Assembly: GCA_038046805.1 (NCBI GenBank)
Contig: JBBSVO010000002.1
Location: 114,445 to 147,844 of the forward strand
Direction: 5' to 3'
From: Candidatus Micrarchaeota archaeon
GTDB taxonomy: Archaea > Micrarchaeota > Micrarchaeia > Anstonellales > Bilamarchaeaceae
Length of the DNA stretch: 33,400 bases
Every line of letters begins with the position of its first letter. Positions within the stretch are counted from its first letter, which is position 1. A model generated the notes under the pieces. It was not told the DNA's origin, did not search any database, and saw nothing but the letters and a program-made list of their open reading frames with translations. The position numbers and the translations under genes were made by a program. Positions 1 through 26,844 of the stretch are shown here, piece after piece.

Positions 1-963
1 TGTCCATCTGGAACATCCTGCAAGGATGGTGCATGTGTTGCAGGAACAAATTCCTGCAGTGATTCTGATGGGGGCACTGATTTAACTATCAAGGGTACTG
101 TAACTGCAACAGGAGCAGATGGAAAAGTCAACAAATCAACTGATTTCTGCAGTGGCACTGCGAATATATTGGAAATGTCTTGTAATACTAATAATATGAA
201 TAAAACCAGTTGGGAGTCCTGCCCTTTAGGTTCCTCATGCAAGGATGGTGCATGCGTAGCTGACGAAGATGACGGTCCAAGTACTCCAACAGTTAAATGC
301 ACTGTTTCGAATTCACCTGCAACAACATCCAAGAAGAATAAGGTTACCTGTACAAACGGAACCGTTGTTGAGGACTTTTGCATTGACAACTCAACTCTGT
401 CTGATTACAAGGTCAAGAAAGACTTGATAAGCCAGTCCACGATAAAGTGCGGCGCTGGCAAGATATGTTCTAATGGGTTATGCAAGAAAAAGCCAGTTTC
501 AGATGAGGGCGCTGATCTGTCCTGCACTGATTCGGATGGCGGCATTGCAACCGCAGTGAAGGGCTCCATTTCATATAAGGAACTGTATGCAACTGAGCCA
601 ACAGTTGAATATGACAGCTGCAAGGACACTCTCAATGTTTATGAAAAATACTGCAGCAACAAAAAGCCAAAGACAAAGAAGGTGAAATGTCCTGCATACA
701 TGGTATGTACGGATGGTGCCTGTGTTGATGAGGATACTGCTGGTTCTGCGAGTTCCGATAACGCGGGACAGCTGAAGAAAAAATCTCCTCTTAGGGAATT
801 CCTCATGGCCGCGTTGTTTAATGACTATGCGTATCTATACGCGCCATCAACCGATGCAAAATCAAGAATGGCAAAAAGCTGGAAGATTGGAAGCGGGAAT
901 CTTCTTTCCGAAATCTTCCTGTATGATTTTGAGCCGGTTGAGATTGGAAATCCGCCGGAATAA
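1..963 (+). CDS. Cys-rich repeat extracellular protein (CxDSDGG...DxC...ExxC...C...CxxGAC domains), 5'-truncated by window edge
   Basis: Frame of ORF 169..963 is open from base 1 (CPSGTSCKDGACV...SCSDSDGG...). Repeated six-Cys modules end in CxDGAC. Confidence 0.8.
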   Translation, partial: CPSGTSCKDGACVAGTNSCSDSDGGTDLTIKGTVTATGADGKVNKSTDFCSGTANILEMSCNTNNMNKTSWESCPLGSSCKDGACVADEDDGPSTPTVKCTVSNSPATTSKKNKVTCTNGTVVEDFCIDNSTLSDYKVKKDLISQSTIKCGAGKICSNGLCKKKPVSDEGADLSCTDSDGGIATAVKGSISYKELYATEPTVEYDSCKDTLNVYEKYCSNKKPKTKKVKCPAYMVCTDGACVDEDTAGSASSDNAGQLKKKSPLREFLMAALFNDYAYLYAPSTDAKSRMAKSWKIGSGNLLSEIFLYDFEPVEIGNPPE

Positions 964-1025
964 AGTTGTTTGGAGTTTCAATCCAAACACTTCCCTTTTT
1001 ATTCTTTATTTTCGTAGCCTTTAGC

Positions 1026-3758
1026 ATGAGCACAACCCCTCTTCGTCCGAAAATCATGTTTGGATTGTTTTTTGTCCTGGTTATGTTATCTGCTTCTTTT
1101 GCAGTTAATTCTCTTACTTCGCCTTCTATCGTTGCCGGAGCGCCGTCCGTAGACAATTCGCAACCGGTTACATGTGTTGATCCTGCAAATTCAAAAACAG
1201 CCGAAGAAAAAGACGAAGTAACCTGTACAAACGGAACTGTTGTGGTTGATTATTGTCTTGGTTCAACCGCGGTGTTGGAATACCATATTATACCCACATC
1301 AAAGCAACTTACCTCGACACAAATGCCTTGCAAAGCCGGCACAGTTTGTTATGATGGGGCATGCATGTTTCCAAATGAAGCAAAGGCATTGGAAAAAGAT
1401 GCAGATCCAACTGTGCAGGTTTCAGCTTCATGCACGGACAGTGATAACGGGCAAAACACCGAAGTCTCAGGAACGATGGACTATCTTTTCAAACAGGGTG
1501 GCTGGAGCTATGCGCATACATTCAAAGACCAGTGTGCAGATAGCGGTTCGGTTTTGGAAAGATATTGCGATTCTGGAAAAGGTAAGAACATAACTCTGTC
1601 GTGTGCGACAGGTTCTTCGTGTTCAAATGGAGCTTGCGTAAAATCTTCGATTCCAGCACCTTCTGTTTCCGCATCAAGTTCTGTTCCAGGCAGCATTGTT
1701 GATCCTGCAGTTGAAACTCCAGTAAGTTGTACGGACAGTGATGGCGGAAAAAATAATCTTATTGCTGGTTCCGTAAACTACGCGTTCACAAAAGGGGCGC
1801 AGAGTTATACTGTGAATCTTGTTGACAAATGCATTAATGACAATGTAAATGTTTCCGAGAATTATTGCGATTCAAAGAACAAGGCGCATACGATTTCGCT
1901 TCCGTGCGAGGCTGGTTCTTCCTGTGTAAGTGGTGCCTGTGTAAAATCATCCGCGTCCTCGTTTCCAGCACCTTCTGTTTCCGCATCAAGTTCGGTTCCA
2001 ACGAGCGGTTCAACAAACAACAACGAGCAGATTATAGGTAACAATGTTTATTCCTGCGTTGATAGTGATGGCGGCAAAGACAATATTTTCAAAGCAGGAA
2101 CTTCTATAAGATACAAAAATAGTTCTATTGATTTCACGGTTCAAGAAGTATGTGTATCTGAAACCCAAGTAATGGAAGCCCATTGCGATGGAATAAATCC
2201 GGTATTTTCAAATCCAGATGGTGAAACCTGTCCAGAAAATTATGTTTGCAAATCCGGTGCGTGTATTAATTTATCAGAACCTTCAGTTTCAGAGCCAGTT
2301 ACTTCAGAAACCACGCCTCCATTAACAGCATCTGCTTCATCTTCGGTTTCTACAAATGCTTCAAAACCAACAGCAAAATCCATAGTTCCTTCAGGACCAT
2401 CGCTGGTCAAACCTCCAACTACCTCCGGGCCAAGTACAACCAAACCCACAATTCCTTCACTGCCTTCAATTTCCTCATTACCATTAACAGCATCTTCTCC
2501 GTCTTCGGTTTCTTCGAATGCTTCATCATCGGTTACAACTACTGAAGCAGCACCAGCAGAACCATTACCAGCCGAAATAAAAACTCCGTTCGCAGACAAA
2601 AAAATTGCGAATTGTAAAAAGAGCGGCGGGGAAAGCATCTACAGAAAAGACAAGATAACCTGGACGGCATATATCGGTTCTTCCGTAACGCCATCAGTGA
2701 ATGAAGACACGTGCACTTCAGATACGCGGGTAGCCGAATGGGCATGTGCTAGTGACAGCTCCCCGATAATAAAATATATTGATTGTCCATCAGGTTATTC
2801 CTGTTCTGATGGCGCTTGCTTACTGAATCCGCGTTCAGCTGGAGAAAAGCCAGATGCTTCATCTGTCCCGTCTTCGGTTTCTACAACTGCTTCACAACCA
2901 CGCCCGATGGCAAACAAGTCTATAACTCCCAAATCCGTAACTCCTTCGACCGCTTCAGCTCCAACCGCCAGGCCGCGTGACTCTTCAGTAGTTTCAGAAG
3001 AAACTTCAGATGTATCTTCAACTGAATCATCATCCGTTTGCCGTGATAATGACGGTGGATTAGAATACAGAATCGCTGGCAGGGTCACATGTACCGATGG
3101 ACTAAGTTTTGAAGATAATTGTGCTGATTCAAGAATCCTGGTTGAATATTACGAGCGCGGGGGAGAAATGAAATCCACGCGCGTAATATGCTCACGGGTT
3201 GCAGAAGGTTATTCCTGTGTTCGCGGGGCTTGTGCAAAATCCGATTCAGTTGTTCCGCAATCAACAGCGACAACTCCAACTGCAAGGGATGTTGTTTCAA
3301 AAGGAATCTCCCAATCTGTTATTCCAACGGTTTCTTCCAGTGTTCCGCCAAAAGCAGAGCTTAGATACGAATGTGCTGACTCTGATGGCGGCATGGATAT
3401 CAAAACCAAGGGAAACACGCGCGAGGCATTGATAACCGAAGACGGAACAAGAACCGAAGTAGCGTTTCAGGATGCTTGTGATGGCGATATGCGCGTTCGG
3501 GAATATTTCTGTTCAGGAAACCGTGCAAAATCCAAAACAATGCGTTGCAGTATGGCTGAAAAATGCAGCGACGGAATCTGCGTGCGATCTTCAGAGGTGC
3601 GAGAGACTTCATCCACAACTTCATCTACAACGTCATCCGCAACTTCCGGATCCTCAACCTCAAGAGTCTCAACATCGCGTGATTCATCTACAAGGCGTGG
3701 AAATGTGCTCACCACCTGGGATACTTCTCCCGTCGATGAGCTGGTAAGACGTCGATAG
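1026..3758 (+). CDS. Secreted protein with seven six-Cys repeat domains separated by S/T/P-rich linkers
   Basis: ATG at 1026 followed by a signal-peptide-like stretch (KIMFGLFFVLVMLSASFA). Seven CxDSDGG/CxxGAC-type modules. No C-terminal TM segment seen. Confidence 0.85.
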   Translation: MSTTPLRPKIMFGLFFVLVMLSASFAVNSLTSPSIVAGAPSVDNSQPVTCVDPANSKTAEEKDEVTCTNGTVVVDYCLGSTAVLEYHIIPTSKQLTSTQMPCKAGTVCYDGACMFPNEAKALEKDADPTVQVSASCTDSDNGQNTEVSGTMDYLFKQGGWSYAHTFKDQCADSGSVLERYCDSGKGKNITLSCATGSSCSNGACVKSSIPAPSVSASSSVPGSIVDPAVETPVSCTDSDGGKNNLIAGSVNYAFTKGAQSYTVNLVDKCINDNVNVSENYCDSKNKAHTISLPCEAGSSCVSGACVKSSASSFPAPSVSASSSVPTSGSTNNNEQIIGNNVYSCVDSDGGKDNIFKAGTSIRYKNSSIDFTVQEVCVSETQVMEAHCDGINPVFSNPDGETCPENYVCKSGACINLSEPSVSEPVTSETTPPLTASASSSVSTNASKPTAKSIVPSGPSLVKPPTTSGPSTTKPTIPSLPSISSLPLTASSPSSVSSNASSSVTTTEAAPAEPLPAEIKTPFADKKIANCKKSGGESIYRKDKITWTAYIGSSVTPSVNEDTCTSDTRVAEWACASDSSPIIKYIDCPSGYSCSDGACLLNPRSAGEKPDASSVPSSVSTTASQPRPMANKSITPKSVTPSTASAPTARPRDSSVVSEETSDVSSTESSSVCRDNDGGLEYRIAGRVTCTDGLSFEDNCADSRILVEYYERGGEMKSTRVICSRVAEGYSCVRGACAKSDSVVPQSTATTPTARDVVSKGISQSVIPTVSSSVPPKAELRYECADSDGGMDIKTKGNTREALITEDGTRTEVAFQDACDGDMRVREYFCSGNRAKSKTMRCSMAEKCSDGICVRSSEVRETSSTTSSTTSSATSGSSTSRVSTSRDSSTRRGNVLTTWDTSPVDELVRRR
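1651..1993 (+). repeat. 31-bp exact direct repeat inside the Cys-repeat gene (1651-1681 and 1963-1993)
   Basis: ttccagcaccttctgtttccgcatcaagttc occurs twice and encodes the PAPSVSASSS linker. Confidence 0.9.
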
Positions 3759-3794
3759 CTTTTTCGCCGAATGCCGTAGTGCCCTAGCGTTAGG

Positions 3795-3830
3795 TTTATA
3801 AACTTAATCGTCGTGGGTTATCTCGGTGAT
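3795..3830 (+). promoter_or_regulatory. Archaeal TATA box and Shine-Dalgarno for the 3836 ORF
   Basis: tttataaa at 3795-3802; ggtgat at 3825-3830, 5 nt before the ATG. Confidence 0.6.
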
Positions 3831-3835
3831 TTACC

Positions 3836-4186
3836 ATGGATGAGAAAATAGGTGAATATGCGTTTATTCTTGGTGTAGTGCTGTCCCTTATCATAGGGGT
3901 ATTCTCAGCACAGGTTGAGGCATACCAGACTTTGATCCTGGGAGCACTTGCGATTTTGGGTCTGATTGTCGGTGTATTGAATATTACTGACAAGGAGATC
4001 TACAACTTCCTTATTGCAACCATTGCTCTTCTTGCAGCGGCAAGCTCTGTCAGTGCATTGGGTTCAATTCTTGGAACGGAAGTGGGCAGCATGATAATTG
4101 GTTTCGTTGGCGGATTGGCTGCCTTCGTATCTCCGGCTGCAGTAGTTGTTGCGCTTAAAGGCGTTTACAATATGGCAAGCAAGTAA
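3836..4186 (+). CDS. Small multi-pass membrane protein, function unknown
   Basis: 116 aa with about 4 hydrophobic helices, a good SD, and a T-rich tract after the stop. Confidence 0.85.
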   Translation: MDEKIGEYAFILGVVLSLIIGVFSAQVEAYQTLILGALAILGLIVGVLNITDKEIYNFLIATIALLAAASSVSALGSILGTEVGSMIIGFVGGLAAFVSPAAVVVALKGVYNMASK

Positions 4187-4188
4187 GC

Positions 4189-4228
4189 TTGCTTTTCTTT
4201 CTTTTTTATTTTAATTTTTTTATCTTTT
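4189..4228 (+). terminator. Oligo-T archaeal terminator-like tract
   Basis: Several T-runs immediately after the TAA at 4184-4186. Confidence 0.5.
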
Positions 4229-4320
4229 ACGTTTGTGCCATACATTCATTACCTTTTTATATTCTTCTCTTTATTATACTTTTTATGACAGTTCAAAAAT
4301 TTAGGCCTTTTATTCCATTT

Positions 4321-4878
4321 ATGGCAAGAGAGCCAAGTTTTGTCCGCTTTTTAGGTCGTAAAGATAGGGACGCATTCACTCCTCCACAAGGCGTATCTGG
4401 AGTTGTATTAAACGAATCCATTCCTGATCCCCGTAAATTCCATGATTTTGTTCAGGGAGTTTCTGTTGCTGAAAATTTAGGTGTGGGTGGTAAGATTGCC
4501 GTAGGTTTGGAAGTTGCCCGTGCGGTTAAAACTACCTATGGATCAAATAGGAATATGGGATTTGACGTCGTTCGGGTTCATCTTTCGGATGGTTCAAAAC
4601 TTATGGTTGTCTGCAGTTCATGTATCATCGCATTAGAAGATAAAATCGTTCAAGATCAGGGTTCGTTTCGTATGGTCGATACTGTAACTCACTTAAATGT
4701 ATTTGCTTTACAGACGAATTTAAATCACGAGGGTATTATAGGTGTATATCCTGCTCAGGGAGTGCTAGTTGATTTGAGGTCTGCTCCAAGAAAATCTTTA
4801 GTCTTCACCAAACCATTACCCTTGGCTGCAGTTAGGCCATCCTTTGGTCCAGAAGGAATGGGTGTATTTAGATTTTAG
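4321..4878 (+). CDS. Hypothetical protein (start 4285 or 4321)
   Basis: Long ORF with globular composition from MAREPSF. The upstream extension in the track is T-rich terminator sequence. Confidence 0.6.
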   Translation: MAREPSFVRFLGRKDRDAFTPPQGVSGVVLNESIPDPRKFHDFVQGVSVAENLGVGGKIAVGLEVARAVKTTYGSNRNMGFDVVRVHLSDGSKLMVVCSSCIIALEDKIVQDQGSFRMVDTVTHLNVFALQTNLNHEGIIGVYPAQGVLVDLRSAPRKSLVFTKPLPLAAVRPSFGPEGMGVFRF

Positions 4879-5313: not shown

Positions 5314-5354
5314 TGAAGTGACTGTAAGGAAGTCTATAATGTGAGTTTATAATT
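5314..5354 (+). other. 5' arm of the 23S pre-rRNA processing stem
   Basis: tgaagtgactgtaa (5314-5327) is the exact reverse complement of ttacagtcacttca (9795-9808). ggaag/cttcc, tataat/gttata and taatt/aatta extend the pairing. Confidence 0.8.
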
Positions 5355-7292
5355 TAAACCAGATATGCAAATGCTATAATCCATGTAGTGGATGGCTAGG
5401 CTGGCAACCACAAGGTCCCGCGGTAAGCGGCGAAACGTCCGGAGTAGGCGCATGCAGCCCGTGATCCCGGAATAGGACGGTGCCCAGGAATGGGCAACAT
5501 TACTCCCTGAAATGAAGCGTCTTAGTAGGGGATGGAAAAGAAATCAATAGAGACCCGGTTAGTAACAGCGAGTGAACGCCGGTCAGATCGCGCTGAATAT
5601 TCTGCAGTAATGCAGATAAGATGTGGCGGGGAGCATCCGTTTTTTGAGCTGAACTTGTCTGGAACGACAGGCCATAGCGAGTGATAGCCTCTTAAGCGAA
5701 GGGAAACGGAGCGATCCAAAAAGAGTAGTGCCTCCTGGATAGGTGGTATGAATATAGGGGTATCAACCTCTAAATCTAAGTATGAGTGTGCCAGACCGAT
5801 AGCGAATTTAGTATCGCGAGAGAATGCTGAAAAGTACCGCGAGAGCGGTGTCAAAAGAACCTGAAATTACATGGAGACATTACGATACGGCGCAAAAGAA
5901 TCGACCTTCCTGGAAGTTAGGTTTCGTAAGGAACTGTACGACAGGGAGTATCAGCGTTGTGTCTTACTTCTCGAAGCAAGTGCCAAGGAGTTATCGGGCG
6001 TGGCGAGATGAAAATCGAAGCGAAAGCGAGTGCCCGCAAGAAATGAGGGGTGTCGTGCGAAAGCGCGATCAGTCACTCCCGATAGACCCGAAGCCGTTGT
6101 GATCTACTCCCGGCCAGGATGAAGCCATTCTGACGAATGGTGGAGGTCCGAATCCAGTTCTGGTATATTCCGTTTGGGTGAGCTGGGTGTAGGGGTGATA
6201 GTCCAATCGAACACGGCGATAGCGGGTTCCCTCCGAAATGTCCCTCAGGACAGCGTCCCTAGAGGATGATGCGGCGGTAGAGCACTGATTAGGGGGAATG
6301 GCCTCGAAAGGGGTCGCCTTCTTCTCAAACTCCGAATGCCGTTTCTCCAAAGAAGGGGGCAGTCGGGTTTCACGGGGTAAGCCCGTGAGCCCTTACGGGA
6401 ACGACCGTACGTGGGGTTAAGGACCCTAAATGCTGGTTAAGTGTTAATCGTAAAGGAGCGTCCATCCTAAAACAATCGGGATGTAGGCTTAGAAGCAGCC
6501 ATCATTCAAACAACGCGTAATAGCGGACCGATCGAGGGTGCACGTTCTGAAAATTGACGGGGCTAAACCAGCTTCCGATACCTCACCAGCGCCAAAAGCG
6601 CATGAGTAGGTGGGCGATCGGGTTGCGTAGAAGTCGGGCAGTAATGTCCGATGGAGCGACCTGATATGAATATCTTGGTGTTAGTAGCAGCATATCTAGG
6701 TGAGAATCCTGGACGCCGAAAGAGCACGGATTCCTTAGCAATGTTTGTCAGCTGAGGGTTAGTCGGTCCTAAGGGGTTAGGTAAATCCGAAACTCCGAAA
6801 GGGAAATCGGTTAATATTCCGATACTATAACAGTAGGTTTGCGGAAACGCACGCCGTTTCTTAGACGCCTTGAGATATGTAGAGCATCGCGAGATGTCTG
6901 TAGGCAGTAACTCTGTGGAGTCTCATTATGAGGAGAAGCAGATGAAAGCCGAAGGGGTAACTCTATCGATTCTTGGGGCCCATGAAAATAAGAGCGGAAC
7001 GACCTGTTATACCCGTACCTAGAACTAATACAGGTGTCTCTAGCTTAAAAGGCTAAGGCGTGGCAGGACAACCCAGGTAAGGGAACTCGGCAAGATAGTC
7101 CCGTAACTTAGGAAGAAGGGATGCCTTCGCCTGCGTAAGGCGGAGGTCGCAGATACAAGGGGAGAGCGACTGTTTATCAAAAACACAGGTCATCGCAGGT
7201 TCGAAAGGATGTGTATGATGGCTGACGCCTGCCCACTGCCAGTACCTGAAACCGGGTTTCAACCCGAAGAAAGGCTGGTAAAGAGCGGGGGT

Positions 7293-7898
7293 TTCTGTAT
7301 CTCTCTCAATAAGAATAAAAAACGTGTCTGAGAATTACTTGCATGAAGTCAGATGAGGCATATTTTTTGGGAGCACTTGGAGACGCTTATCTTGATTTTA
7401 AGCGTAACGAAGTGCAAATTTACCAAAAAGATGTTGAATGGCTTGAGTATTTGAACGAAATATTGTTCCGAATGATTGGTGAAAGAGGCAGATTATTCAA
7501 ACGGGATGTTTTTATGCTCCGTAAACGGAGTAAGAAACTTTTTCTGATATTGAAAAAATTGCTTAATGAACCTATTCAACATGGGGAATATTTTGTTGCA
7601 GGTTGGTTTGACAGCGAAGGAAGTGTTTATCTATCTACAAAATCAAAAATTCCCGTAGTGGATATAACACAATCTGAAAAAGGCCTTTCTGTTTTAAACA
7701 ATTGCAAGCAAATTCTCGACGGACTAGGAATAAAAAATTTCTTAAATGGTCCGTACAAACATTGGAATTCGAAGTTGAAAACATACCATCTTCGTGTCTA
7801 TGGAAAACACGCGAGGTTATTCTTTTTGCGGATTCCATTAATCCACAAGGAGAAAAAGGCACGTTTTAAAAAATTCTTAGGAGAGATGCAGACCTCAA
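7293..7898 (+). mobile_element. 23S intron 1 (606 nt, BHB-type, after ~E. coli U1911) carrying a LAGLIDADG ORF
   Basis: Exons rejoin as GGGGGU|AACUCUGACC. Stem tctgtatctctc/gagagatgcaga, central helix gggg/cctc, and bulges gt^t and aa^a place the cuts at exactly these ends. Confidence 0.92.
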
Positions 7899-7906
7899 AA
7901 CTCTGA
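7343..7906 (+). CDS. Intron-encoded double-motif LAGLIDADG homing endonuclease (sense)
   Basis: Motifs AYFLGALGDA and YFVAGWFDSEGS. AT-rich ORF inside intron 1; the genomic stop lies in the downstream exon. Confidence 0.88.
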   Translation: MKSDEAYFLGALGDAYLDFKRNEVQIYQKDVEWLEYLNEILFRMIGERGRLFKRDVFMLRKRSKKLFLILKKLLNEPIQHGEYFVAGWFDSEGSVYLSTKSKIPVVDITQSEKGLSVLNNCKQILDGLGIKNFLNGPYKHWNSKLKTYHLRVYGKHARLFFLRIPLIHKEKKARFKKFLGEMQTSKL

Positions 7907-7914
7907 CCCTCTTA

Positions 7915-7958
7915 GACCTTCCATGCTTTTTATTTTGCATGGCAGGGGTCGTGGAGAT
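7915..7958 (+). other. 23S mini-intron 2 (44 nt, canonical BHB, after ~A1927)
   Basis: Exons rejoin as CUCUUA|AGGUAGCG. Outer helix acc/ggt, central helix ctct/ggag, bulges ta^g and at^a, internal ccatgc/gcatgg hairpin. Confidence 0.92.
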
Positions 7959-8272
7959 AGGTAGCGTAATACCTCGCCGCTTAATTGGCGGCTTGCATGA
8001 ATGGCGTAACGCCTCTCCCACTGTCCCTACTTGGGACCTGGTGAACTCACTGCCCGGTGAAGATGCCGGGGACTTCCAGAGGGAAACGAAGACTCCATGG
8101 AGCTTTACTATAGCCTGACGTTGTAATAATGGATTTATTACCGAGCGTAATTGGGAGCGTCGAAACGGTGCTTCCGGGCATCGTGAATGCGAAAGTGAAA
8201 CACCAATTAATAGATTTATTATTGCTTACCCGCAAGGGAACAGCATCAGGTTGATAGTTTGGCTGGGTGTCT

Positions 8273-8908
8273 TTAGGAGTAAGAACAACAAGAGTCCAAT
8301 AATTCGTTCTTAGTCCGTCCCACATTGACAGAACTTGATTGAACTACTGTACTTTCTGGCAGGAATCGAATTTGTGAAGCGAATTTTTTAATTTCGCTCA
8401 TTCTATTAATTCGAATTCCTTTAGGAGTTACCAAACTTTGTATATCAAGAGTTTGAAGAAGTTCTGAAAGTTGCTGTTTTATGTTGGGATGTACGCATGC
8501 GATTTCTATCACGGCCTTATGGTCTTTGTCAGAATAAATACAACCATCTGACGAAGCGTAGGTCTGAAGAAATACAATTGCTAAATTTCTGTTCGTGAAT
8601 ATCTCTTGAGGAATGCACGTCTTTGGGTATTCTCCATCTTTAAAGCGAAGAGTTCTAAACGATGGTGAATAAGTAAAAAGATGTTTCGCAATCTTCTTAG
8701 AGAAAAAGCGAACAGAAGTGGCATTCTTACATTTGTTTTTAGAAAATTTTTGAATGCCAAAACATTGTTTGACTAAGAATTTGAATTTTTCGAGCATCTG
8801 CTCGTTCTTATTTGTGAACTGAATACAGAAGGTTCGTTTGCTTTTATCGTAATATGCCGAACCATCCGAAATCAGGAATCCAATAAGCGCGGCAAGATTC
8901 TCGTCCAT
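8273..8908 (-). CDS. Double-motif LAGLIDADG homing endonuclease encoded antisense to the rRNA
   Basis: Motifs LAALIGFLISDGS and FLQTYASSDGC. Intact 211 aa ORF wholly inside intron 3. Confidence 0.9.
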   Translation of the reverse strand: MDENLAALIGFLISDGSAYYDKSKRTFCIQFTNKNEQMLEKFKFLVKQCFGIQKFSKNKCKNATSVRFFSKKIAKHLFTYSPSFRTLRFKDGEYPKTCIPQEIFTNRNLAIVFLQTYASSDGCIYSDKDHKAVIEIACVHPNIKQQLSELLQTLDIQSLVTPKGIRINRMSEIKKFASQIRFLPESTVVQSSSVNVGRTKNELLDSCCSYS

Positions 8909-8930
8909 ATTTCGATAATATCATTTGTTA

Positions 8931-8947
8931 ATTTATATGACTTTTGC
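8931..8947 (-). promoter_or_regulatory. Intron-internal BRE/TATA driving the antisense endonuclease (leaderless)
   Basis: The minus strand reads gcaaaag-tc-atataaat, with the TATA 23-30 nt upstream of the ATG at 8908. Confidence 0.6.
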
Positions 8948-9172
8948 TTACTCCTCTAGACCAGCAAGCGGTACGCCCTCGAAAAGGAAACAAGGGCGCC
9001 CAATGCTCTGCTCAGTCCGGTCAGAAATCGGATGTAGAGAGTTAAAGGCAAATGCAGGGCTGACTGTATTCTTAAAAGCGTGGAATGCAGAGAGGAAACT
9101 CGGGCTTAACGAACCTTGATATCCCTTTGATGAGGATTCAAGCTGTCAGACAAGCTACCCTGGAGGTAACAG

Positions 9173-9214
9173 TGTTCGTATGACCTAGCGTTAGCTAGTT
9201 CTATGAGCGTTAAG
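9173..9214 (+). other. 23S mini-intron 4 (42 nt, BHB, after ~G2454 in the PTC ring)
   Basis: Exons rejoin as UAACAG|GCUCGUCGCGGG. Central helix taac/gtta, bulges ag^t and ag^g, inner stem gttcgta/tatgagc. Confidence 0.9.
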
Positions 9215-9237
9215 GCTCGTCGCGGGTGAGAGTACAC

Positions 9238-9290
9238 ACGTGACGATTGTCTTCGTTATAACTATAACTATACAATCGCACAACGTATAA
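9238..9290 (+). other. 23S mini-intron 5 (53 nt, bulge-helix-loop, H89 after ~2477)
   Basis: Exons rejoin as GAGAGUACAC|AUCGAC. Central helix gtac/gtat, 3' bulge aa^a, inner stems gtg/cac and cgattgt/acaatcg. Ends are uncertain by 1-2 nt. Confidence 0.85.
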
Positions 9291-9347
9291 ATCGACCCCG
9301 CGGTTTGGTACATCGCTGTCGGCTTGGGACATCCTGGTCGTGCAGGA

Positions 9348-9389
9348 AATCCCCGCGGATTCGCATTGTAAATCCTAGAGGATATGCAA
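9348..9389 (+). other. 23S mini-intron 6 (42 nt, relaxed BHB, H91 loop ~2533-2534)
   Basis: Exons rejoin as GUGCAGGA|GCGGCCAAGGG. Central helix gca/tgc plus one G-A mismatch, bulges ga^a and aa^g, inner stem atcc/ggat. Ends are uncertain by 2 nt. Confidence 0.8.
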
Positions 9390-9770
9390 GCGGCCAAGGG
9401 TTGGGTTGTTCATCCATTAAAGTCCCACATGAGCTGGGTTCAGTACGTCGCGAGACAGTACGGTAGTATCTCCTGGAAGTGTAGCCTCTTGAGAGTAAGG
9501 ATCCCTGAGTACGAGAGGAACGGGGATCCGGCGCCTCTAGTAGATCGGTTGTCATATGGCATTGCCGAGCAGCCACGCGCCACGTCGATAAGACCTGAAA
9601 GCATCTAAGGTCGAAGCGACTCTTAAAACTAGGAGGCAAAGTCCGCCCATAGTAGATGGGTTTGATAGGACCGGGGTGTAAGCGGTTAGCGCAAGCGAGC
9701 CGTTCAGCCTGCGGTTACTAAAGGAATATTCCTAATACTTTTTAGTATTGGGGTTTTTGCATATTTGGTC

Positions 9771-9808
9771 AATTACTCCAGTTATATTCTTCCTTTACAG
9801 TCACTTCA
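9771..9808 (+). other. 3' arm of the 23S pre-rRNA processing stem
   Basis: Complementary to 5314-5354. Confidence 0.8.
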
Positions 9809-9992: not shown

Positions 9993-10061
9993 GCGGCCAA
10001 ATTGTATCTGTTCAGGTTATCGTCGCAGTGGAATTACTACACGAAACCCGGGGGAAAAAAC

Positions 10062-10589
10062 ATGTCTGGTCCAAGTGTTGTTAGACAATTGCGTCCGCAA
10101 GTTTCGGAGAATGTCTCCAGAGTAGTTGTTGTTAGCGGGTTTTTTGAAAAAGCGTCTCATCTTCCAGGTGGAAAAATGCCTTACCCATATACATTTGTCG
10201 CATCGTTTACTCCAGAAACCGGGGTGCGGGTGACTAGGCATTTTGGAAATAATAACGGGGTTGCTGTTGGCCAAAAATCTTTTTCTGATCCGAACACCCA
10301 GCGTGAAATGCTTTTAGCACGATTGCATGAAATTGTAATGCCTTTTGGGGATCAGAAGGCAATTGAGGTACATTCAAGAGAAACAGATCCGAAGAAGCAA
10401 CTACTTCGCCCAAGCCAGTTGTCTCATCTTTCACTTGAGGAACTTGAGCATATTCGGTCCGGGCTGTCAGAGCAGGGCAATGTGCCAAGGCAGGTAACCG
10501 AAGCTATTTCCTCTGTGATATCTGAAAAAGACAGTCTTCGTAGTGAGGCCCCTTTGATAGAAGGTTTGAGAGTTGCGGCATCAGGTTAA
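10062..10589 (+). CDS. Hypothetical protein (paralogue of the 10623 ORF)
   Basis: ATG at 10062 after a G-rich SD-like run. Shares motifs with the next ORF. Confidence 0.7.
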   Translation: MSGPSVVRQLRPQVSENVSRVVVVSGFFEKASHLPGGKMPYPYTFVASFTPETGVRVTRHFGNNNGVAVGQKSFSDPNTQREMLLARLHEIVMPFGDQKAIEVHSRETDPKKQLLRPSQLSHLSLEELEHIRSGLSEQGNVPRQVTEAISSVISEKDSLRSEAPLIEGLRVAASG

Positions 10590-10622
10590 ATTAAATTTTG
10601 CTATTAATCGAGGTGATGAACT

Positions 10623-11063
10623 ATGGGTGGAGCGCAAGCACTATGTGGAAAACCAGTAAATATGAGGCAGGTTGGCAATGGAGAAACGTCTCGGATAGTT
10701 GTGACATCCCAGGCAAATCGGGATTCAAGGAGCTGGTTTATCAGCAGCTCAGGAGGCAAAGGACCTTTATATGAGGTCATTGCGAAAAATGGCCGCGAAA
10801 AACCTGACCGCGAAATTGTTATTACCCGTAAATTTGGCCAGGATGTCATTACCCAAACTTCGGAAAGCACAACCCTGTTTCAAAATGGAAAGCCTGGTCT
10901 CACTTCGCACGAGTTTGAGTTCGTGGCAGATGCACTCCAGAACGAATTGAGCAGGGGCGGGGATAGTAATACGTTAGCCAGTACTGTCTCGAATGTCAGG
11001 GGTCTTGCCTGCATTTCCAGGGTTCGCGAATACGGGGATAGGCACACGGGAGTTATTGATTAA
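10623..11063 (+). CDS. Hypothetical protein (paralogue of the 10062 ORF)
   Basis: Strong SD gaggtga at 10610-10616 and a T-rich tract after the stop. Confidence 0.75.
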   Translation: MGGAQALCGKPVNMRQVGNGETSRIVVTSQANRDSRSWFISSSGGKGPLYEVIAKNGREKPDREIVITRKFGQDVITQTSESTTLFQNGKPGLTSHEFEFVADALQNELSRGGDSNTLASTVSNVRGLACISRVREYGDRHTGVID

Positions 11064-16122: not shown

Positions 16123-16199
16123 TATTGGCCCGTTGCCTTGGGCCTTGGGCTTTTGGCCCGCGAGTTAAGGTTTTAATTTGCAACACCCTATTCTCTTCC

Positions 16200-17420
16200 A
16201 TGCGGTTATTTGTAGTAACAATGGTCGTTCTTACATTTCTCATGGGCAATCTGTTCTCTCAGTCCGCCCAAGAAAAAGCAGCACTTATTGTGCAACCAGC
16301 TATCGTGAATCTCGAGGCCACTGTTCTTTTTACTGTAAAAATAAATTCTGCTTTTCTGGGATATCCCGAACTTGCCGGACGAAGCTATGCAATAACCGAG
16401 AAAAAACAAGGGGCTGGTTTTTTAATAAATGGAGATGGTTATCTTTTTTCCTCATCAACATTAATTCCGCAGGAGAATGATTCCGAATTCCTTTCAGACA
16501 TTGCCCTCGCAATTTCAACCGACTTGGGAAGAATCGAGCACATAAAGATGTTCGGAACCGAGCCTGGCAATTCCGAAATTAATGCTTTTTCGGAATACCT
16601 ATATGGTTTAAACGGAGGCAAGGATGTTTTTTTTAAGATTCTTTTCTCTGCCATAAACTCGGGCAATATCTCTGTTATAAAAAGCAAAAACCCAACAATT
16701 TTCGCATTCTTCAATGAAACCAATCCAGAAGAACTTCTTTTTATAAATGAGAGTGATGGTTTGGTTTTTGCAAAGGCAGATGGAAAAAATTTTCTGACCC
16801 TGGGGTTGTCTAATGATTCAAACAATCTTTCAAACATCTCCAACGGAGACACGGTGTATATCGTTTCATTCAATAATTCAAACTTCTCGATTTCAACTGC
16901 GGTTGCATCAGTTGCATCGGTCGCATCAGTTACCCAAAGCAATGCCGGTGGTACGGCGTCGCCCAATTCAGTCTCATTCAACAATCCCTACGGTTCTTTT
17001 CCACCATATTTACCGGGAATCGTTTTTGATTCATCCTCGCGGGTTTGGGGGGTTTCTTCGGGGGGCAGTACAACTCCTTCAAGCGAGATTGTCCGTGCGT
17101 CCAATCAGGCGGGTATTGTTCCATCTAAGTCAGAAGCTGATAAATCATATGAACAGGGAATGACTGCATTGTGGGATGGAGACAATCAGATGGCGGAATT
17201 CTTTCTTGAAGACGTAATTTCCGATAATTCTAAACAATCCGGCGAGGTTGGCAAACACCTGAATTCTGCTCGTTCGGCAAAACTTGATATAAAAATTCCC
17301 GAATTAAGTGTTTCCAGTTTGAATGGATTTTCACCATTCGTGATACCTGCACTTGCAATTTTGGCAGCCGTTTTCCTGATCGCGAAATTTATTCTAGGAA
17401 GACGCCGAAGGTCACATTAA
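16200..17420 (+). CDS. Secreted/membrane-anchored trypsin-like (HtrA-like) domain protein, catalytic residues degenerate
   Basis: Signal peptide. GAGFLINGDGYLFSS resembles the GSGF..DGYILTNAH segment. C-terminal TM segment followed by RRRR. Confidence 0.6.
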   Translation: MRLFVVTMVVLTFLMGNLFSQSAQEKAALIVQPAIVNLEATVLFTVKINSAFLGYPELAGRSYAITEKKQGAGFLINGDGYLFSSSTLIPQENDSEFLSDIALAISTDLGRIEHIKMFGTEPGNSEINAFSEYLYGLNGGKDVFFKILFSAINSGNISVIKSKNPTIFAFFNETNPEELLFINESDGLVFAKADGKNFLTLGLSNDSNNLSNISNGDTVYIVSFNNSNFSISTAVASVASVASVTQSNAGGTASPNSVSFNNPYGSFPPYLPGIVFDSSSRVWGVSSGGSTTPSSEIVRASNQAGIVPSKSEADKSYEQGMTALWDGDNQMAEFFLEDVISDNSKQSGEVGKHLNSARSAKLDIKIPELSVSSLNGFSPFVIPALAILAAVFLIAKFILGRRRRSH

Positions 17421-22795: not shown

Positions 22796-24193
22796 CTATC
22801 TTATCCGTTTGAGCCGAAAATCTGTAATTGTATTCACATGCGGTTTGTGCAATACAGATTGCGCCGGAGGCGTGTAGTTTTGCATAACTCTTCTCACAAC
22901 TTCTTTATATCTCGTAATTTCTTCGTGGTCTGCGAGGGTTTTCCTTATTTTTTCTCTTAGTTCTGATTCCGGATATGCATGAATTTTCACTCCAAACAAT
23001 CTTATCACAAATTGTATAAGCGGATCCTCGTTTATCTTTTTCATTATTTTGTTTGTCTGTTTTTCGTTCACTCCAATAATATGGTATCCCCCTACACCAA
23101 GGTGAGCTACGGAATAATAAAATGCCACGACCGCGGATGGTCCGAAGGCACTCCAATAATTGGCAACCTTGTCATTTATTATTCCAAATATACTGCCTGC
23201 ACCTACTCCGAGGCTCTTTGCAAGTGCAGTTCTTGGATTGTTTATGTCGCTAGTGCATATAATTCCTGCCTTTACAACGTCAGCCTGTTTGCTGGCGCAC
23301 CAAATTCTTTCAGGGTCATCCTCTGGCAAATAAGTCAAAGCAATCTCCTTTATCCGTGCCTTGTCATCGAGAATAAAATATGCATGTTCATTCCTATCCA
23401 CTCTTATAACTCCTCCAGTTTCAAAATCTTCTATGCCTGCATTTATGATTACTGGCAGGTCTCCGAGTTCCGGATCCATTCTTATCGCGGCTTTGAGATT
23501 TCCCTTTTGATCCGTTATATGTTTTACAAGTTTATCTATATTAGTTATAAATCCTCTTACGTGTTCTCCAGTATAAAAGTATACATTTCTTAGCAATTTT
23601 TGGAGGCGGCCTTCGTTGTCAATAGGTTCATCAACTGTGTTAACTGTTTTTCCGGTCGCTTTATCATAATATTCCGTGGCAAGTTTGTGGTCTGTGTTAG
23701 CATTGTCAAAAATTAGTTTCATGAGTTCCTTCCACGCCTCTGCTGCATGTGCCATGCCACAATGTGTTCTGGAGGTCTCATCAACCGTTATCTCCTCTTC
23801 AGAGTATGTTGTCTTTCCAACAGTAACAAATGGTGCCAGCCCGACTTTTCCGTGGGTAAGAAGTTGAACTATTAAGTCTAACCTGCCGTCCGCATGATCC
23901 ATACTTGAATGCATTATGCGATGCAGTCTGCCCTTTACTTCAGATATATTGTCCGGAGTCATATATGTGCCTGCAACGCTCATTGTTTCAATCATTGCCA
24001 TAATTCCTCTGAGGGCATACGCTCTAACTAATTCCTCTTCTATTATAGAATCCAGGAATCTGACTCTTCGCGAATCCGAGCATCCCACTACAAGGTTTAT
24101 CTGAATCCGTTCAATCTGCGCTTCGTTCTTCTTCATATCAATGCATTTTGGTTTGTCACTATAGTCTCCACCTTCAACAACCATACCTGTCAT
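22796..24193 (-). CDS. Divergent beta-carbonic-anhydrase-like protein (paralogue 1)
   Basis: Motifs CSDSR, SVAG, THG...HCGM; second module IICTSD...YYSVAHLGV. Confidence 0.6.
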   Translation of the reverse strand: MTGMVVEGGDYSDKPKCIDMKKNEAQIERIQINLVVGCSDSRRVRFLDSIIEEELVRAYALRGIMAMIETMSVAGTYMTPDNISEVKGRLHRIMHSSMDHADGRLDLIVQLLTHGKVGLAPFVTVGKTTYSEEEITVDETSRTHCGMAHAAEAWKELMKLIFDNANTDHKLATEYYDKATGKTVNTVDEPIDNEGRLQKLLRNVYFYTGEHVRGFITNIDKLVKHITDQKGNLKAAIRMDPELGDLPVIINAGIEDFETGGVIRVDRNEHAYFILDDKARIKEIALTYLPEDDPERIWCASKQADVVKAGIICTSDINNPRTALAKSLGVGAGSIFGIINDKVANYWSAFGPSAVVAFYYSVAHLGVGGYHIIGVNEKQTNKIMKKINEDPLIQFVIRLFGVKIHAYPESELREKIRKTLADHEEITRYKEVVRRVMQNYTPPAQSVLHKPHVNTITDFRLKRIR

Positions 24194-24356
24194 CCTCTAA
24201 TAAGTTTTTTCAAGAACGTCTGTGTTAATTAATGTAACGGTATATTTAAAACTTGATCTTAAATAGTTATTTTTTCGGAAGCCACCTGCAGTTTATCTAA
24301 TGGGGAAGAATAAAAACACACAGCAAAAACAAAAAATAAGTTTTATGAAATAATCT

Positions 24357-25817
24357 CTATCCGTTTAATATCGCTTTGAACTGTGGTTTAACGTTTCCTC
24401 TTAGTACGGAACCTTCTGGAATATGTTCTCTTAGACGGCTATATGCAGTTGCAACTATTTTTCTGTATCTATCATCGCCTTCCGCCGTTTCCTGAGTTCT
24501 TATCTGGTCAACCGTTACAGCGTGTATCCGTACACCATATTTCTTTATGATCCATTGCATTATAGGATCCTTTTCTATTTTTGACGATATTTTTTCGCAT
24601 TGATCTCTGTCATTTCCTACAAGGTAATGATCTTTTATACCAAGGTGCTTAACTGCATAGTAAAAAGCAACCAATTGGTAGGGGCTGAATGGATAATAAT
24701 CATGCAGAACATTGTCGCTTATTGCAGTTGCAAATACTCCGCCAGCTGCGTTTACTTCCGCTTGTTTTTTTGAACTACTAAGCCACTTTGCCAGCATGTT
24801 TCTGGGGGAAGGGATGCTGTCATGACAAAATATCCCTACCTTTGCAATATCTTTTTGGTCCTTGGTTCGGTTTATTCTTTCCGGATCGTCATCGGGCAAT
24901 AGTGATTTGTCCAAATATATCAATCTTCTTACAATCGCAGCGTCATCAAGAAATGAATGGGTTTCTACATTTCCATCGACTCTAAAACATGTTCCATCCT
25001 CGTAATTAGTCATTGCGCCATTTATTGTCATTTTTACATTTCCAAGTCGCCTATCTGTGCGTATCGATTCCTTTAATGTATCCTTTTGTCTCCGTGGATG
25101 TTTTATCAGGTTTCTAATACTGGAAACAAATTCATCGAGTCTATCTTCCTGGTAATTGTATACTTCCTTTAAGAGAGACAAGAACGTCGTGTCACTGTTT
25201 ATTGTTGAAACAACTGTCCCACCAGTATCTTTGTCATAATATGATATCACTGGGGAATTGCTTGTGATTTCATCTATAAGCTCTCTCCATACTCTTCCAG
25301 CACCACGCATTCCACAATTTATAGATGCGCTATCTCTTCTCATTTTTAATTCATGGATATAATACACTCTTCTAAATGGATCCTCATGTTCAGCATCTTT
25401 TAATACCACATCACCGTGAGAGTGGAGTTGAACTATCAGCCTAAAGTCATCCGGACGCATGTTCCTGAATCTGCCATAGTTGAACAGCATGTTGTGTATC
25501 GTTCCCTTTACCTCTGGGATCGTGTCTACATGTGTCATGAACGCACCGGCTATGCTCATTGATCGATATGGAACAACCACACCTCTAATAGCATATTCTG
25601 CTCTAAGTAATTCGGTTATGAATTTATCTAATCTTCCAACTTCTCTTGCGTCTGCGCATTTTATTTTTATTATAACCTGGATAGCGTCTGTAAAATCTGG
25701 TTCCACAACTCCTTTAATCATTCTTAAAAATGCAGCATTTATCTCGGCCTCGCTTGAAACCTGAAGTTGTTGGCGTATGCCTCCGACAGTCGTTCCATCT
25801 GTTCCTCCAGTAGTCAT
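24357..25817 (-). CDS. Divergent beta-carbonic-anhydrase-like protein (paralogue 2)
   Basis: Motifs CADAR, SIAG, SHG...NCGM; second module IFCHDS...YYAVKHLGIK. Colinear with the neighbouring ORF. Confidence 0.6.
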   Translation of the reverse strand: MTTGGTDGTTVGGIRQQLQVSSEAEINAAFLRMIKGVVEPDFTDAIQVIIKIKCADAREVGRLDKFITELLRAEYAIRGVVVPYRSMSIAGAFMTHVDTIPEVKGTIHNMLFNYGRFRNMRPDDFRLIVQLHSHGDVVLKDAEHEDPFRRVYYIHELKMRRDSASINCGMRGAGRVWRELIDEITSNSPVISYYDKDTGGTVVSTINSDTTFLSLLKEVYNYQEDRLDEFVSSIRNLIKHPRRQKDTLKESIRTDRRLGNVKMTINGAMTNYEDGTCFRVDGNVETHSFLDDAAIVRRLIYLDKSLLPDDDPERINRTKDQKDIAKVGIFCHDSIPSPRNMLAKWLSSSKKQAEVNAAGGVFATAISDNVLHDYYPFSPYQLVAFYYAVKHLGIKDHYLVGNDRDQCEKISSKIEKDPIMQWIIKKYGVRIHAVTVDQIRTQETAEGDDRYRKIVATAYSRLREHIPEGSVLRGNVKPQFKAILNG

Positions 25818-25998
25818 GCCTGTCCCTCATCAAATAAGAAGTTCTAGTAATATCTGTTATAACTGATGTAAACTCGTATTTATATAACTTGGTACAAACA
25901 GTCAATTTGCTTACTTCCTATTATGTCCAAACCTATTTAAAATTTAACCGAGAATGCAAAAATGCGAGTTTACGGGTAGGATTCAGGGGCGACAGGAC

Positions 25999-26844
25999 AT
26001 GGCTGACAAAATGGATGAGATTATAATCACCCCCCGGGATATTGCACGCATTGTTGAATTGAACAAACAGCGTGCAGAGCTTATTTTCAGGAAATCTTAT
26101 GCAAACAATGCCTCTCTGAACGTAACCATTGACAAAGAACTTTCAATTATTGAGGCAAGTCTTTCCTCGTTCAATGAAAAACTGAAAAAGGCAAGAATGG
26201 AGCTGGTGTTCCCAAACGGCGAGCTTATCTCCGGGCTTTCCGTCCAGATAGATAAACACTCTCATTCTGCGATTGCTGAGGCGCTTAAGACAAGAAGCGG
26301 AGAGTTATACTCTCTTCTCGAGCAGCGCGGGAAACTCACAAAAAGGAATTACGAAGCACGGGAGGAAATAGGAAAATTGAATATCCTGCTTCAGCACGTG
26401 GGAAGCCGCAATCGGGAACATATTGTAAAGGCAATTGTCTGCGGAGCAATAGCCGAAGAAGAAACGACTATTTCATTTGACGGCATAGATAGCAAATCCC
26501 AGAAAGCGCTTTGCGTGCTGCTCAAGCGCGTTGGGTTGGGGGCGCTCGTCAACGGTGCAAAAACACCGGACGAGGTAGAAGTGACTGTTGCCAACCGGAA
26601 ATTATGGGTTCCTCCAGATGCAGTTGAAGCTATTTCCAAAAATGAGCAGAAGATGTTCGAGCTTCAAAAATCCATTCAATTAAAGAACGCGGAGCGTCAG
26701 ATAAAAGTATTCTCCGAAGAGGAAGAACTGGCGTTCGCATCTGCGCAAAAACAGTATCTTGAACTTCTGAAGGAAAAAGATGCCCTTTGTGCGGATTCTC
26801 TTTCTGGTGACACGGAGTTTGTTTACAAATTTTTTGCAACGTAA
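25999..26844 (+). CDS. Hypothetical helical/coiled-coil protein
   Basis: Long E/K/L-rich ORF. Start is uncertain (25954, 25999 or 26011). Confidence 0.7.
   Translation: MADKMDEIIITPRDIARIVELNKQRAELIFRKSYANNASLNVTIDKELSIIEASLSSFNEKLKKARMELVFPNGELISGLSVQIDKHSHSAIAEALKTRSGELYSLLEQRGKLTKRNYEAREEIGKLNILLQHVGSRNREHIVKAIVCGAIAEEETTISFDGIDSKSQKALCVLLKRVGLGALVNGAKTPDEVEVTVANRKLWVPPDAVEAISKNEQKMFELQKSIQLKNAERQIKVFSEEEELAFASAQKQYLELLKEKDALCADSLSGDTEFVYKFFAT

Follow-up and report, generated by a model that had tools for sequence, protein, structure and literature searches.

Six predicted bulge-helix-bulge introns in the 23S rRNA gene of a Candidatus Micrarchaeota archaeon and a candidate folding clamp in the helix-89 intron

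Described systems and the interrupted 23S gene

In the Thermoproteales, coding introns and short hairpin introns with bulge-helix-bulge (BHB) motifs occupy 13 sites of the 16S ribosomal RNA (rRNA) gene, and the 23S introns were too few to analyse (Jay and Inskeep 2015, PMC4496867; statements on this and on the other papers cited by PMC number refer to the portions of their text that were available). We describe here a 23S rRNA gene with six inserts that are very probably genuine archaeal BHB introns of this known class. The gene lies in a stretch of 33,400 nucleotides from a Candidatus Micrarchaeota archaeon (GenBank assembly GCA_038046805.1, contig JBBSVO010000002.1, positions 114,445 to 147,844 of the forward strand), hereafter called the window. 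Its inserts resemble the rRNA introns of the Thermoproteales and Desulfurococcales in the BHB at the junction, the EndA/RtcB route, the occurrence together of introns coding for LAGLIDADG proteins and of hairpin introns shorter than 50 nt, the presence of several introns per gene and the conserved sites (PMC4496867). They differ in the host, which belongs to the Micrarchaeota (DPANN) and not to the crenarchaeal thermophiles, in the epsilon2 type of the splicing endonuclease, in the interrupted gene (23S instead of 16S), in a nuclease gene lying antisense to the rRNA (the word "antisense" is absent from the available text of PMC4496867) and in a load of up to 37 inserts per gene in the family of the host.

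Group I introns of the large-subunit (LSU) rRNA have been listed for Micrarchaeota, with BHB introns drawn beside them (Nawrocki, Jones and Eddy 2018, PMC6125680). Multi-intron LSU genes of uncultured archaea, Micrarchaeota included, are common to that study and to ours, but the sites given there are those of group I introns, a list of BHB sites was not found in the available text or in one supplement, and the window is without a group I intron. As for the enzyme, Y236, H251 and K282 are catalytic in the epsilon2 EndA of ARMAN-2 and Y160 and K161 are loop residues (PMC12397907), and epsilon2 EndA cleaves strict and relaxed motifs (PMC3239211). The host and ARMAN-2 share the enzyme type, the catalytic triad and loop (ASL) residues, the relaxed motifs and the intron-riddled transfer RNAs (tRNAs), whereas the substrates described for ARMAN-2 are tRNAs and the introns treated here interrupt rRNA (PMC3239211, PMC12397907). 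Nothing on DPANN rRNA introns was found in the available parts of PMC7714728, PMC4238349, PMC8527467 and PMC12918454. The literature consulted gave no account of Micrarchaeota 23S BHB introns by site (older crenarchaeal 23S papers may list some of the sites), of genes with dozens of BHB introns, or of pairing between the catalytic ring and an arm of an intron. Nor was a published list of archaeal 23S BHB sites found for the comparison of positions suggested with the original prediction. The intron class is known; the new aspects are the antisense nuclease gene, the extreme loads in the family and the candidate clamp, and the six introns extend the class to the 23S rRNA of Micrarchaeota. The original prediction, an earlier reading of the same DNA, had placed six BHB introns in this gene; to it are added here the nuclease genes of two introns and, in the helix-89 intron, a conserved arm antisense to the rRNA.

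Six inserts at BHB junctions

A single 23S copy was found in the assembly by blastn; the 16S gene is unlinked, on contig C4, and is cut by the contig end. The inserts were called by an assumption-free global alignment of window positions 5364-9736 with seven relatives, the E. coli rrlH gene serving for the numbering. The insert-free gene of one relative (L043 of genome G029) returned all six inserts at the sizes given in Table 1, and the other six relatives returned subsets of them because of the inserts that they carry themselves. In the rrlH mapping the raw positions followed E. coli 1911, 1927, 2252, 2452, 2477 and 2533. The same exon is obtained in equivalent registers shifted by +1 or +2 at 2452, by +1 at 2477 and by +1 at 2533, and the BHB rule chooses registers 2454, 2477 and 2534. 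Alignment, E. coli mapping and BHB register agree on the six sizes and sites of the original prediction. Its claim that the first ~1930 nt hold no insert also stands: exon 1 (1929 nt), compared with 16 23S genes of the family, showed just three one-off gaps of 11-13 nt and no consistent extra sequence. The gene includes two micro-exons, of 16 nt and 23 nt. Other details had to be amended. The spliced length had been put at ~2925 nt; between the Rfam ends (5364-9736) it comes to 2886 nt. The inserts do fall in the functional core, at sites of catalysis and of subunit joining, but domain V holds only four of the six, sites 1911 and 1927 belonging to helix 69 in domain IV. The fragmentation expected from rRNA callers did not occur with Rfam, cmscan giving one hit (5364-9736); the introns are indeed hidden inside this hit.

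Table 1. Features of the 23S rRNA gene and its introns (window coordinates)
Feature	Position	Strand	Remarks
23S rRNA gene	5364..9736	+	RF02540, 2106.7 bits; seven exons, 2886 nt spliced
Exons, BHB register	5364-7292, 7899-7914, 7959-8267, 8968-9172, 9215-9237, 9291-9347, 9390-9736	+	
Intron 1 (L1911, 606 nt)	7293..7898	+	relaxed HBh'-type motif with long terminal stem; central helix 4/4, exon helix absent
LAGLIDADG endonuclease gene, intron 1, 187 aa	7343..7906	+	PF14528, E 5.6e-08
Intron 2 (L1927, 44 nt)	7915..7958	+	hairpin without open reading frame (ORF), bulge-helix-loop (BHL) type; 4/4 helix, 3-bp exon helix
Intron 3 (L2252, 700 nt)	8268..8967	+	P-loop, between G2252 and G2253; 4/4 helix
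LAGLIDADG endonuclease gene, intron 3, 211 aa	8273..8908	-	PF14528, E 6.7e-15; antisense to rRNA
TATA-like element, candidate leaderless promoter	8931..8937	-	22 nt before the antisense start codon
Intron 4 (L2454, 42 nt)	9173..9214	+	4/4 helix at the +2 equivalent register; helix occupies U2449-C2452 including A2451
Intron 5 (L2477, 53 nt)	9238..9290	+	helix-89 loop, ORF-less, family A; 4/4 helix
Intron 5 arm 1	9239..9246	+	complementary to U2457-G2464 (window 9217-9224), 5' strand of helix 89
Intron 5 arm 2	9249..9257	+	exact 9-nt complement of A2055-C2063 (window 8085-8093), helix 73/peptidyl-transferase ring
Intron 6 (L2534, 42 nt)	9348..9389	+	weakest motif, 3/4
Pre-23S processing stem, 5' strand (predicted)	5326..5371	+	4-bp helix and 3-nt bulge, BHB-like
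Pre-23S processing stem, 3' strand (predicted)	9754..9795	+	

The cut sites predicted from the motifs coincide, as had been claimed, with the ends that restore the exon. At the exon-restoring register the central helix had four of four pairs in five of the six inserts (three of four at 2534), compared with 3 of 92 non-equivalent shifted registers. For the inserts of the family the corresponding figures were 130/160 and 54/2394, a test limited to flanks of at least 70% identity, with the inserts at 1923-1933 except 1927, genome G001 and other families left out. A complete helix was present in all seven inserts of relatives at 1911/1912 and in five of six at 2533/4. At shared sites the four bases before the 3' bulge keep their complementarity to the exon in the relatives while the remainder of the insert diverges; insert-free alleles exist among the relatives at every site, and removal of the inserts restores the conserved rRNA. 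Several motifs of the window are relaxed and not of the strict hBHBh' form with both flanking helices. Thermodynamic folding favoured the central helix at 1927, 2252 and 2477 (pair probability 0.5-0.98, with 0.9-0.98 at 1927). The mini-introns of the host (four in the 23S gene, four in the 16S gene) were without mutual kinship, their best local score of 20 lying below the 99.9% null value of 26.

The motifs make use of nucleotides with a function in the mature subunit. That of intron 1 pairs with G1906-G1909 and that of intron 2 with C1922-U1925, on the two strands of helix 69, G2251 and G2252 form the bulge of intron 3, and the central helix of intron 4 is made with U2449-C2452. Since these nucleotides are borrowed by the motifs, unspliced RNA would be unable to build the helix-69, P-loop and A2451 sites or to form a working subunit.

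Contigs from four of the 24 listed RNA runs (X1, X2, X6 and X8, from four studies) were compared with the gene. Those of X1, X2 and X8, from groundwater, run across the sites of introns 4, 5 and 6 with precisely 42, 53 and 42 nt missing (joins 9170-9213, 9237-9291 and 9346-9389). Loose contig ends fit a join at intron 3 in X1, at intron 2 in X1 and X2, and at introns 1 and 2 together in X8, and loose ends at 7959 were present in X1, X2 and X8. The status of X8 as RNA is doubtful and it may be DNA. Several observations weigh against splicing as the explanation. The strain of X1, X2 and X8 is ~99.5% identical to the host, with 4 of 825 exon bases different from the window, so its DNA may be without introns, and the joins may then show merely the expected mature sequence. 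Run X6, which matches exactly, holds an unspliced piece at 7754-7986 (intron 1, exon 2, intron 2 and exon 3; depth 2) and no exon joint. Local folding, moreover, did not favour the BHB helix at 1911, 2454 and 2534 (0.00-0.18). The contigs of the four runs, which show presence only, contained no back-spliced circle; neither this nor the lack of coverage within introns 1 and 3 in X1, X2 and X8 was used as evidence. The check by junction reads suggested with the original prediction gave exon joins in contigs of a 99.5% strain that may itself be intron-free, no joint in X6 and no circular intron. On the strength of the register test, the conserved four-nucleotide segment, the EndA and RtcB genes and the RNA contigs joined at the predicted places, the earlier view of these inserts as BHB or BHL introns that need removal is upheld, and we strongly infer the splicing of all six.

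The EndA of the host (393 aa) is of the epsilon2 type, with a full-length match to PDB 4FZ2 at E 1e-137 (next match, 8e-24), and keeps all the residues aligned to the catalytic Y236/H251/K282 and to the loop Y160/K161. Epsilon2 EndA is also encoded by the relatives G098, G111, G114 and G104 (71-74% identity), and the host genome holds an RtcB gene. In the splicing route that we propose, a BHB, strict or relaxed, would form in the precursor at every exon-intron boundary, both strands would be cut by epsilon2 EndA following the second bulge base, and RtcB would join the exons and probably circularise the introns. Introns 1 and 3 would be homing elements with intact-looking LAGLIDADG genes, that of intron 3 on the opposite strand, and introns 2, 4 and 6 would be ORF-less remnants or passengers, tolerated because the enzyme of relaxed specificity removes them. 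A single endonuclease would then act as gatekeeper of ribosome assembly at three places, helix 69, the P-loop and A2451. Concerning the tRNAs of the host genome, ARAGORN found 10 only and four passed the Rfam cut-off; T-arm motifs show genes broken by at least one non-canonical intron.

Among the other readings of the inserts, excision without rejoining of the exons, which would leave a fragmented rRNA as with bacterial intervening sequences, draws on the origin of the joined RNA in a slightly different, possibly intron-free strain. Breaks in the P-loop, in helix 69 and beside A2451 would, however, leave pieces of 16 and 23 nt, RtcB is present, and joined forms fit all the sites tested, so that we regard this as highly improbable. 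The same holds for an assembly chimera of alleles from several strains. rRNA genes in metagenome assemblies are prone to chimeras and this gene comes from a metagenome-assembled genome, but one X6 contig runs from intron 1 through to exon 3 with zero differences (for that stretch only), and the relative G098 carries four of the sites of the window in one gene. Retention of the short inserts in the mature rRNA as expansion segments is scarcely credible: the insert in helix 89 is frequent among family loci and folds into a hairpin, but the inserts interrupt invariant loops, their BHB helices are register-specific and the RNA contigs skip them exactly. Equally hard to believe is that the two large inserts are group I introns, despite the group I introns with nuclease genes known at 1923, 1931 and 2593 of Micrarchaeota 23S genes (PMC6125680) and the non-BHB inserts of relatives at 1924/1931, as no covariance-model match was obtained at E up to 5 in 7293-7958 or 8268-8967, the ORFs nearly fill the inserts, the BHB helices are complete and versions of 25-54 nt exist at 1911/1912.

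The helix-89 intron and its two arms

Helix 89 is the commonest insert site of the family, and none of its 34 inserts reaches 500 nt, so they are never long enough for a nuclease gene. In a blind scan of 32 short introns the segment 2450-2465, just upstream of the helix-89 intron, ranked first. Complementarity to the intron's own upstream exon was in the top 5% for 19/31 helix-89 introns, compared with 7/106 introns of other sites. A set of one intron per genus was then used (n=13; chosen by homology, hence not blind). The first 24 nt had their best match at 2452-2464 among 2873 windows (-14.6 kcal/mol), which beats the best window of 14/14 shuffled genes. Nucleotides 11-24 alone had theirs at 2053-2064 (-10.6, compared with -8.3 for the next), which beats the best window of 19/20 shuffled 23S sequences. 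The two matched segments are the two strands of the peptidyl-transferase ring. With a two-target model built from these targets themselves and a fixed criterion, both arms pair in 12/13 introns of the set and in 21/30 unselected short helix-89 inserts, compared with 9/114 introns from other sites and 117/1950 shuffled arms. Introns of this sequence family, called family A, also occur in a second order (six genomes of f14), where both arms are retained and the loops diverge.

Folding of the growing transcript of the window gave a pairing probability of 0.91-0.99 between arm 1 and the exon until the 3' arm of the intron appears, and of 0.00-0.04 with the downstream exon present. The native partners of both targets (2488-2496 and about 2610-2623) lie 3' of the intron. 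This transient pairing, together with the downstream position of the native partners, fits a temporary clamp. We propose that the 5' arm of intron 5 is a transient co-transcriptional folding clamp of the peptidyl-transferase centre, our preferred reading, with a probability of about 0.45. Spanning the base of helix 74, the arm would clamp 2453-2464 and 2052-2063 while transcription proceeds, with 2447-2452 left as a loop, and would hold these strands until their native partners are made. The intron's own hairpin and BHB would then take over, the arm being displaced by the 3' arm of the intron, and EndA would remove the intron. At the same probability, the helix-89 mini-intron would be a domesticated cis chaperone, and the relaxed epsilon2 enzyme would have let ORF-less introns reach ~60 per rRNA set (in genome G010), some of them acquiring jobs. 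If the clamp is true, a supposedly parasitic mini-intron would be a built-in chaperone of the catalytic core of the ribosome, and the persistence of rRNA introns that have no nuclease gene would gain an explanation open to test.

The clamp faces several difficulties. Its targets are invariant wherever family A occurs; with 48 more loci from other families, family-A introns were found only where the target is unchanged, which left no variation in which compensatory exon/intron changes could show. Arm 1 also pairs within the intron, and its variants are all transitions. No helix-89 insert at all is present in 25/59 loci of the family, and a second family of helix-89 introns is without the arm. 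The genomes are kin and not independent, and the second target (the 9-nt match to 2055-2063) was first spotted by eye.

Nearly as probable as the clamp is that the arm is a relic, a duplicated or inverted piece of helix 89 that was spread by co-conversion with neighbouring homing introns and has no role in folding. The 3' arms of family A resemble 2454-2463, the helix-89 intron is dispensable, and co-conversion of an ORF-less neighbour is known for Pog.S1205 (PMC4496867). In 21-23 of 23 cases, five of six positions of the hexamer have their partners within the stem of the intron itself, and that pairing is enough by itself to constrain them. This origin leaves arm 2 unexplained, since its best 23S match (2053-2064) lies 400 nt away, as well as the retention of both arms in the second order while the loops diverge.

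A third possibility, which we consider unlikely, is that intron 5 is a stripped-down guide, of the C/D or H/ACA type, for the modification of a nucleotide in the peptidyl-transferase ring. A chaperone role in rRNA folding has been proposed for dual-guide C/D small RNAs (sRNAs; Dennis et al. 2015, PMC4644070), and intron 5 resembles them in its two antisense segments to sites that are distant in sequence but close in structure. The exact antisense to 2055-2063 is 9 nt long, as against a length of at least 9 nt expected of such guides, the introns of the window and of G010 start with a C-box-like heptamer, and fibrillarin is encoded by the host genome. Unlike those sRNAs (PMC4644070), however, the segments of intron 5 lie in cis, inside a spliced intron, and are contiguous on one arm without conserved boxes: in an alignment of 23 family-A introns, inspected by eye, neither a C box nor H/ACA boxes were conserved, and D and D' boxes at a constant spacing were absent. 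Both arms are on the 5' strand, unlike an H/ACA pocket, and no convincing free-standing counterpart was found in the genome.

Three related candidates were rejected. A 19/19 match of intron 5 (window 9247-9265) to the rpoK leader (G000:C6:13225-13243) was attributed to chance or to the strain; only 1/5000 dinucleotide shuffles reaches 19, yet 2/133 introns of relatives reach 19-22 against the host genome, and none of 14 relatives with both sequences exceeds 7 nt. A free-standing C/D guide for 2450-2460 at C4:151071 was ruled out because it lies within a long ORF, in antisense orientation. Intron 2 as a C/D guide for C1920 gave a duplex rank of 0.22/0.27 relative to random windows, and its arm antisense to helix 69 is common only to G010 among nine other L1927 mini-introns. 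At the same site, the introns of G044, G093 and G104 (L203, L225 and L227) have 3' arms that can pair with exon sequence immediately preceding helix 69, with a rank of 0.000 among 150 random windows, a second case of an exon-like stem.

Nuclease genes and intron loads in the family

The LAGLIDADG genes of introns 1 and 3 encode proteins with two LAGLIDADG motifs with acidic residues, over the Pfam cut-off, and both are open frames under purifying selection. The gene of intron 1 overruns the 3' splice site by 8 nt, with its stop codon in exon 2, and would read 191 aa on the excised circle. In the I-DmoI intron of the Desulfurococcus mobilis 23S gene, a BHB intron of ~600 nt, the LAGLIDADG frame likewise crosses the 3' splice site, so that the linear and circular forms differ. 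This crossing, common to intron 1 and the I-DmoI intron, is not conserved in the 1911/1912 family: it is absent in two of three relatives, the frame ending inside the intron in G074 and L098. The protein is 63-65% identical to those of G074 and G098, with a pN (proportion of nonsynonymous differences) of 0.25, a saturated pS (synonymous) of 0.8 and a dN (nonsynonymous substitutions per site) of about 0.3. Its first LAGLIDADG motif is one residue short, yet is kept in the relatives, and a search of solved structures gave nothing meaningful for the protein.

The nuclease gene is antisense in 5/5 L2252 introns, with a dN of 0.13-0.16 and a dS (synonymous) of 1.7-1.9, and a TATA-like element is present 20-24 nt before the ATG in 5/5 of them (as seen by eye, in AT-rich DNA). 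The protein of intron 3 gave weak matches to intein LAGLIDADG domains among solved structures (E 0.007-0.024). Nuclear group I introns also carry a nuclease gene opposite to the rRNA that needs its own transcript (PMC9548176). They differ in that the enzyme there is of the His-Cys type and the intron self-splicing and eukaryotic, whereas here a LAGLIDADG enzyme is encoded in a protein-spliced archaeal intron.

The 3' exon was present in 69/99 genomes of the family, most of which were taken into a catalogue of inserts of at least 18 nt; G001, of the same genus as the host, is partial (68% aligned) with unreliable inserts and was excluded from the counts. Among the other loci of the family, inserts were found at 1911/12 in 6/55, at 1927 in 8/55, at 2252 in 3/57, at 2450 in 3/59, at 2454 in 0/59, at 2472-77 in 34/59, at 2532 in 8/59 and at 2533/4 in 6/59. 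The ends of the L2252 insert were homologous in 3/57 family loci and in G027. Of 52 near-complete loci, seven had at least six BHB-like inserts and 13 had none, and the 138 BHB-like inserts of the family were distributed as 96 at 1900-2620, 37 before and 5 after. The six inserts of the window are a high number and not a record, and clustering in the core is a tendency of the family and not a rule, G010 and G098 having many inserts in domains I-III.

The highest load was that of G010. Its 23S gene (L236, G010:C58:1-8062) contains 37 inserts of 25-106 nt, 23 of them with four of four helix pairs and 10 with three of four, and their removal leaves 2908 nt with 83% identity and no gap >7 nt. Its 16S gene (L241/L244, G010:C3:20937-23522, minus strand) contains 25 inserts of 27-55 nt, of which 12 have a complete helix. 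Eighteen inserts form one sequence family across the 23S and 16S genes, each with a helix matched to its site. A search for the motif of this large intron family outside rRNA gave only chance-like matches in five genomes. The exons of G010 are as short as 8 nt, and its helix-89 insert resembles an intron nested in an intron. In bacteria of the candidate phyla radiation (CPR) the maximum is 16 inserts per rRNA gene, counting inserts of at least 100 bp (PMC11270868), a number exceeded by the up to 37 short inserts found here. Such loads affect primers, rRNA annotation and models of intron spread.

Lesser loads were seen in L229 (G098), L217 (G111), L219 (G114), L227 (G104) and the 16S loci L237-L240, with 9-16 inserts in 23S and 9-13 in 16S genes. 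The partial 16S gene of the host (L070, G000:C4:1-1100, minus strand) has four mini-inserts, near 696, 793, 866 and 908. The L1938 inserts of eight family loci (128-145 nt) have no ORF and form a conserved family whose 5' end stays fixed from genus to genus. The locus L077, in a record titled Odinarchaeota, has a BHB insert of 583 nt with an ORF at L1927, which shows use of this site outside DPANN. Many inserts of relatives at 1924/1931, near 2497 and at 2586-2597 are without a BHB helix or have ORFs, and there are likely group I introns among them.

Around the gene, cofolding of the predicted processing stem with 9716-9800 gave -48.5 kcal/mol. Elsewhere in the window, ORFs without a Pfam match at E 0.01 lie within 169-4878, 10002-11063, 16125-17420, 22796-26844 and 28655-29473, including one of 930 aa at 966-3758. 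In the peptidyl-transferase ring (window 9310-9320) the gene has A2499 and C2503, where E. coli has C2499 and A2503, and it also has G2058/C2057.

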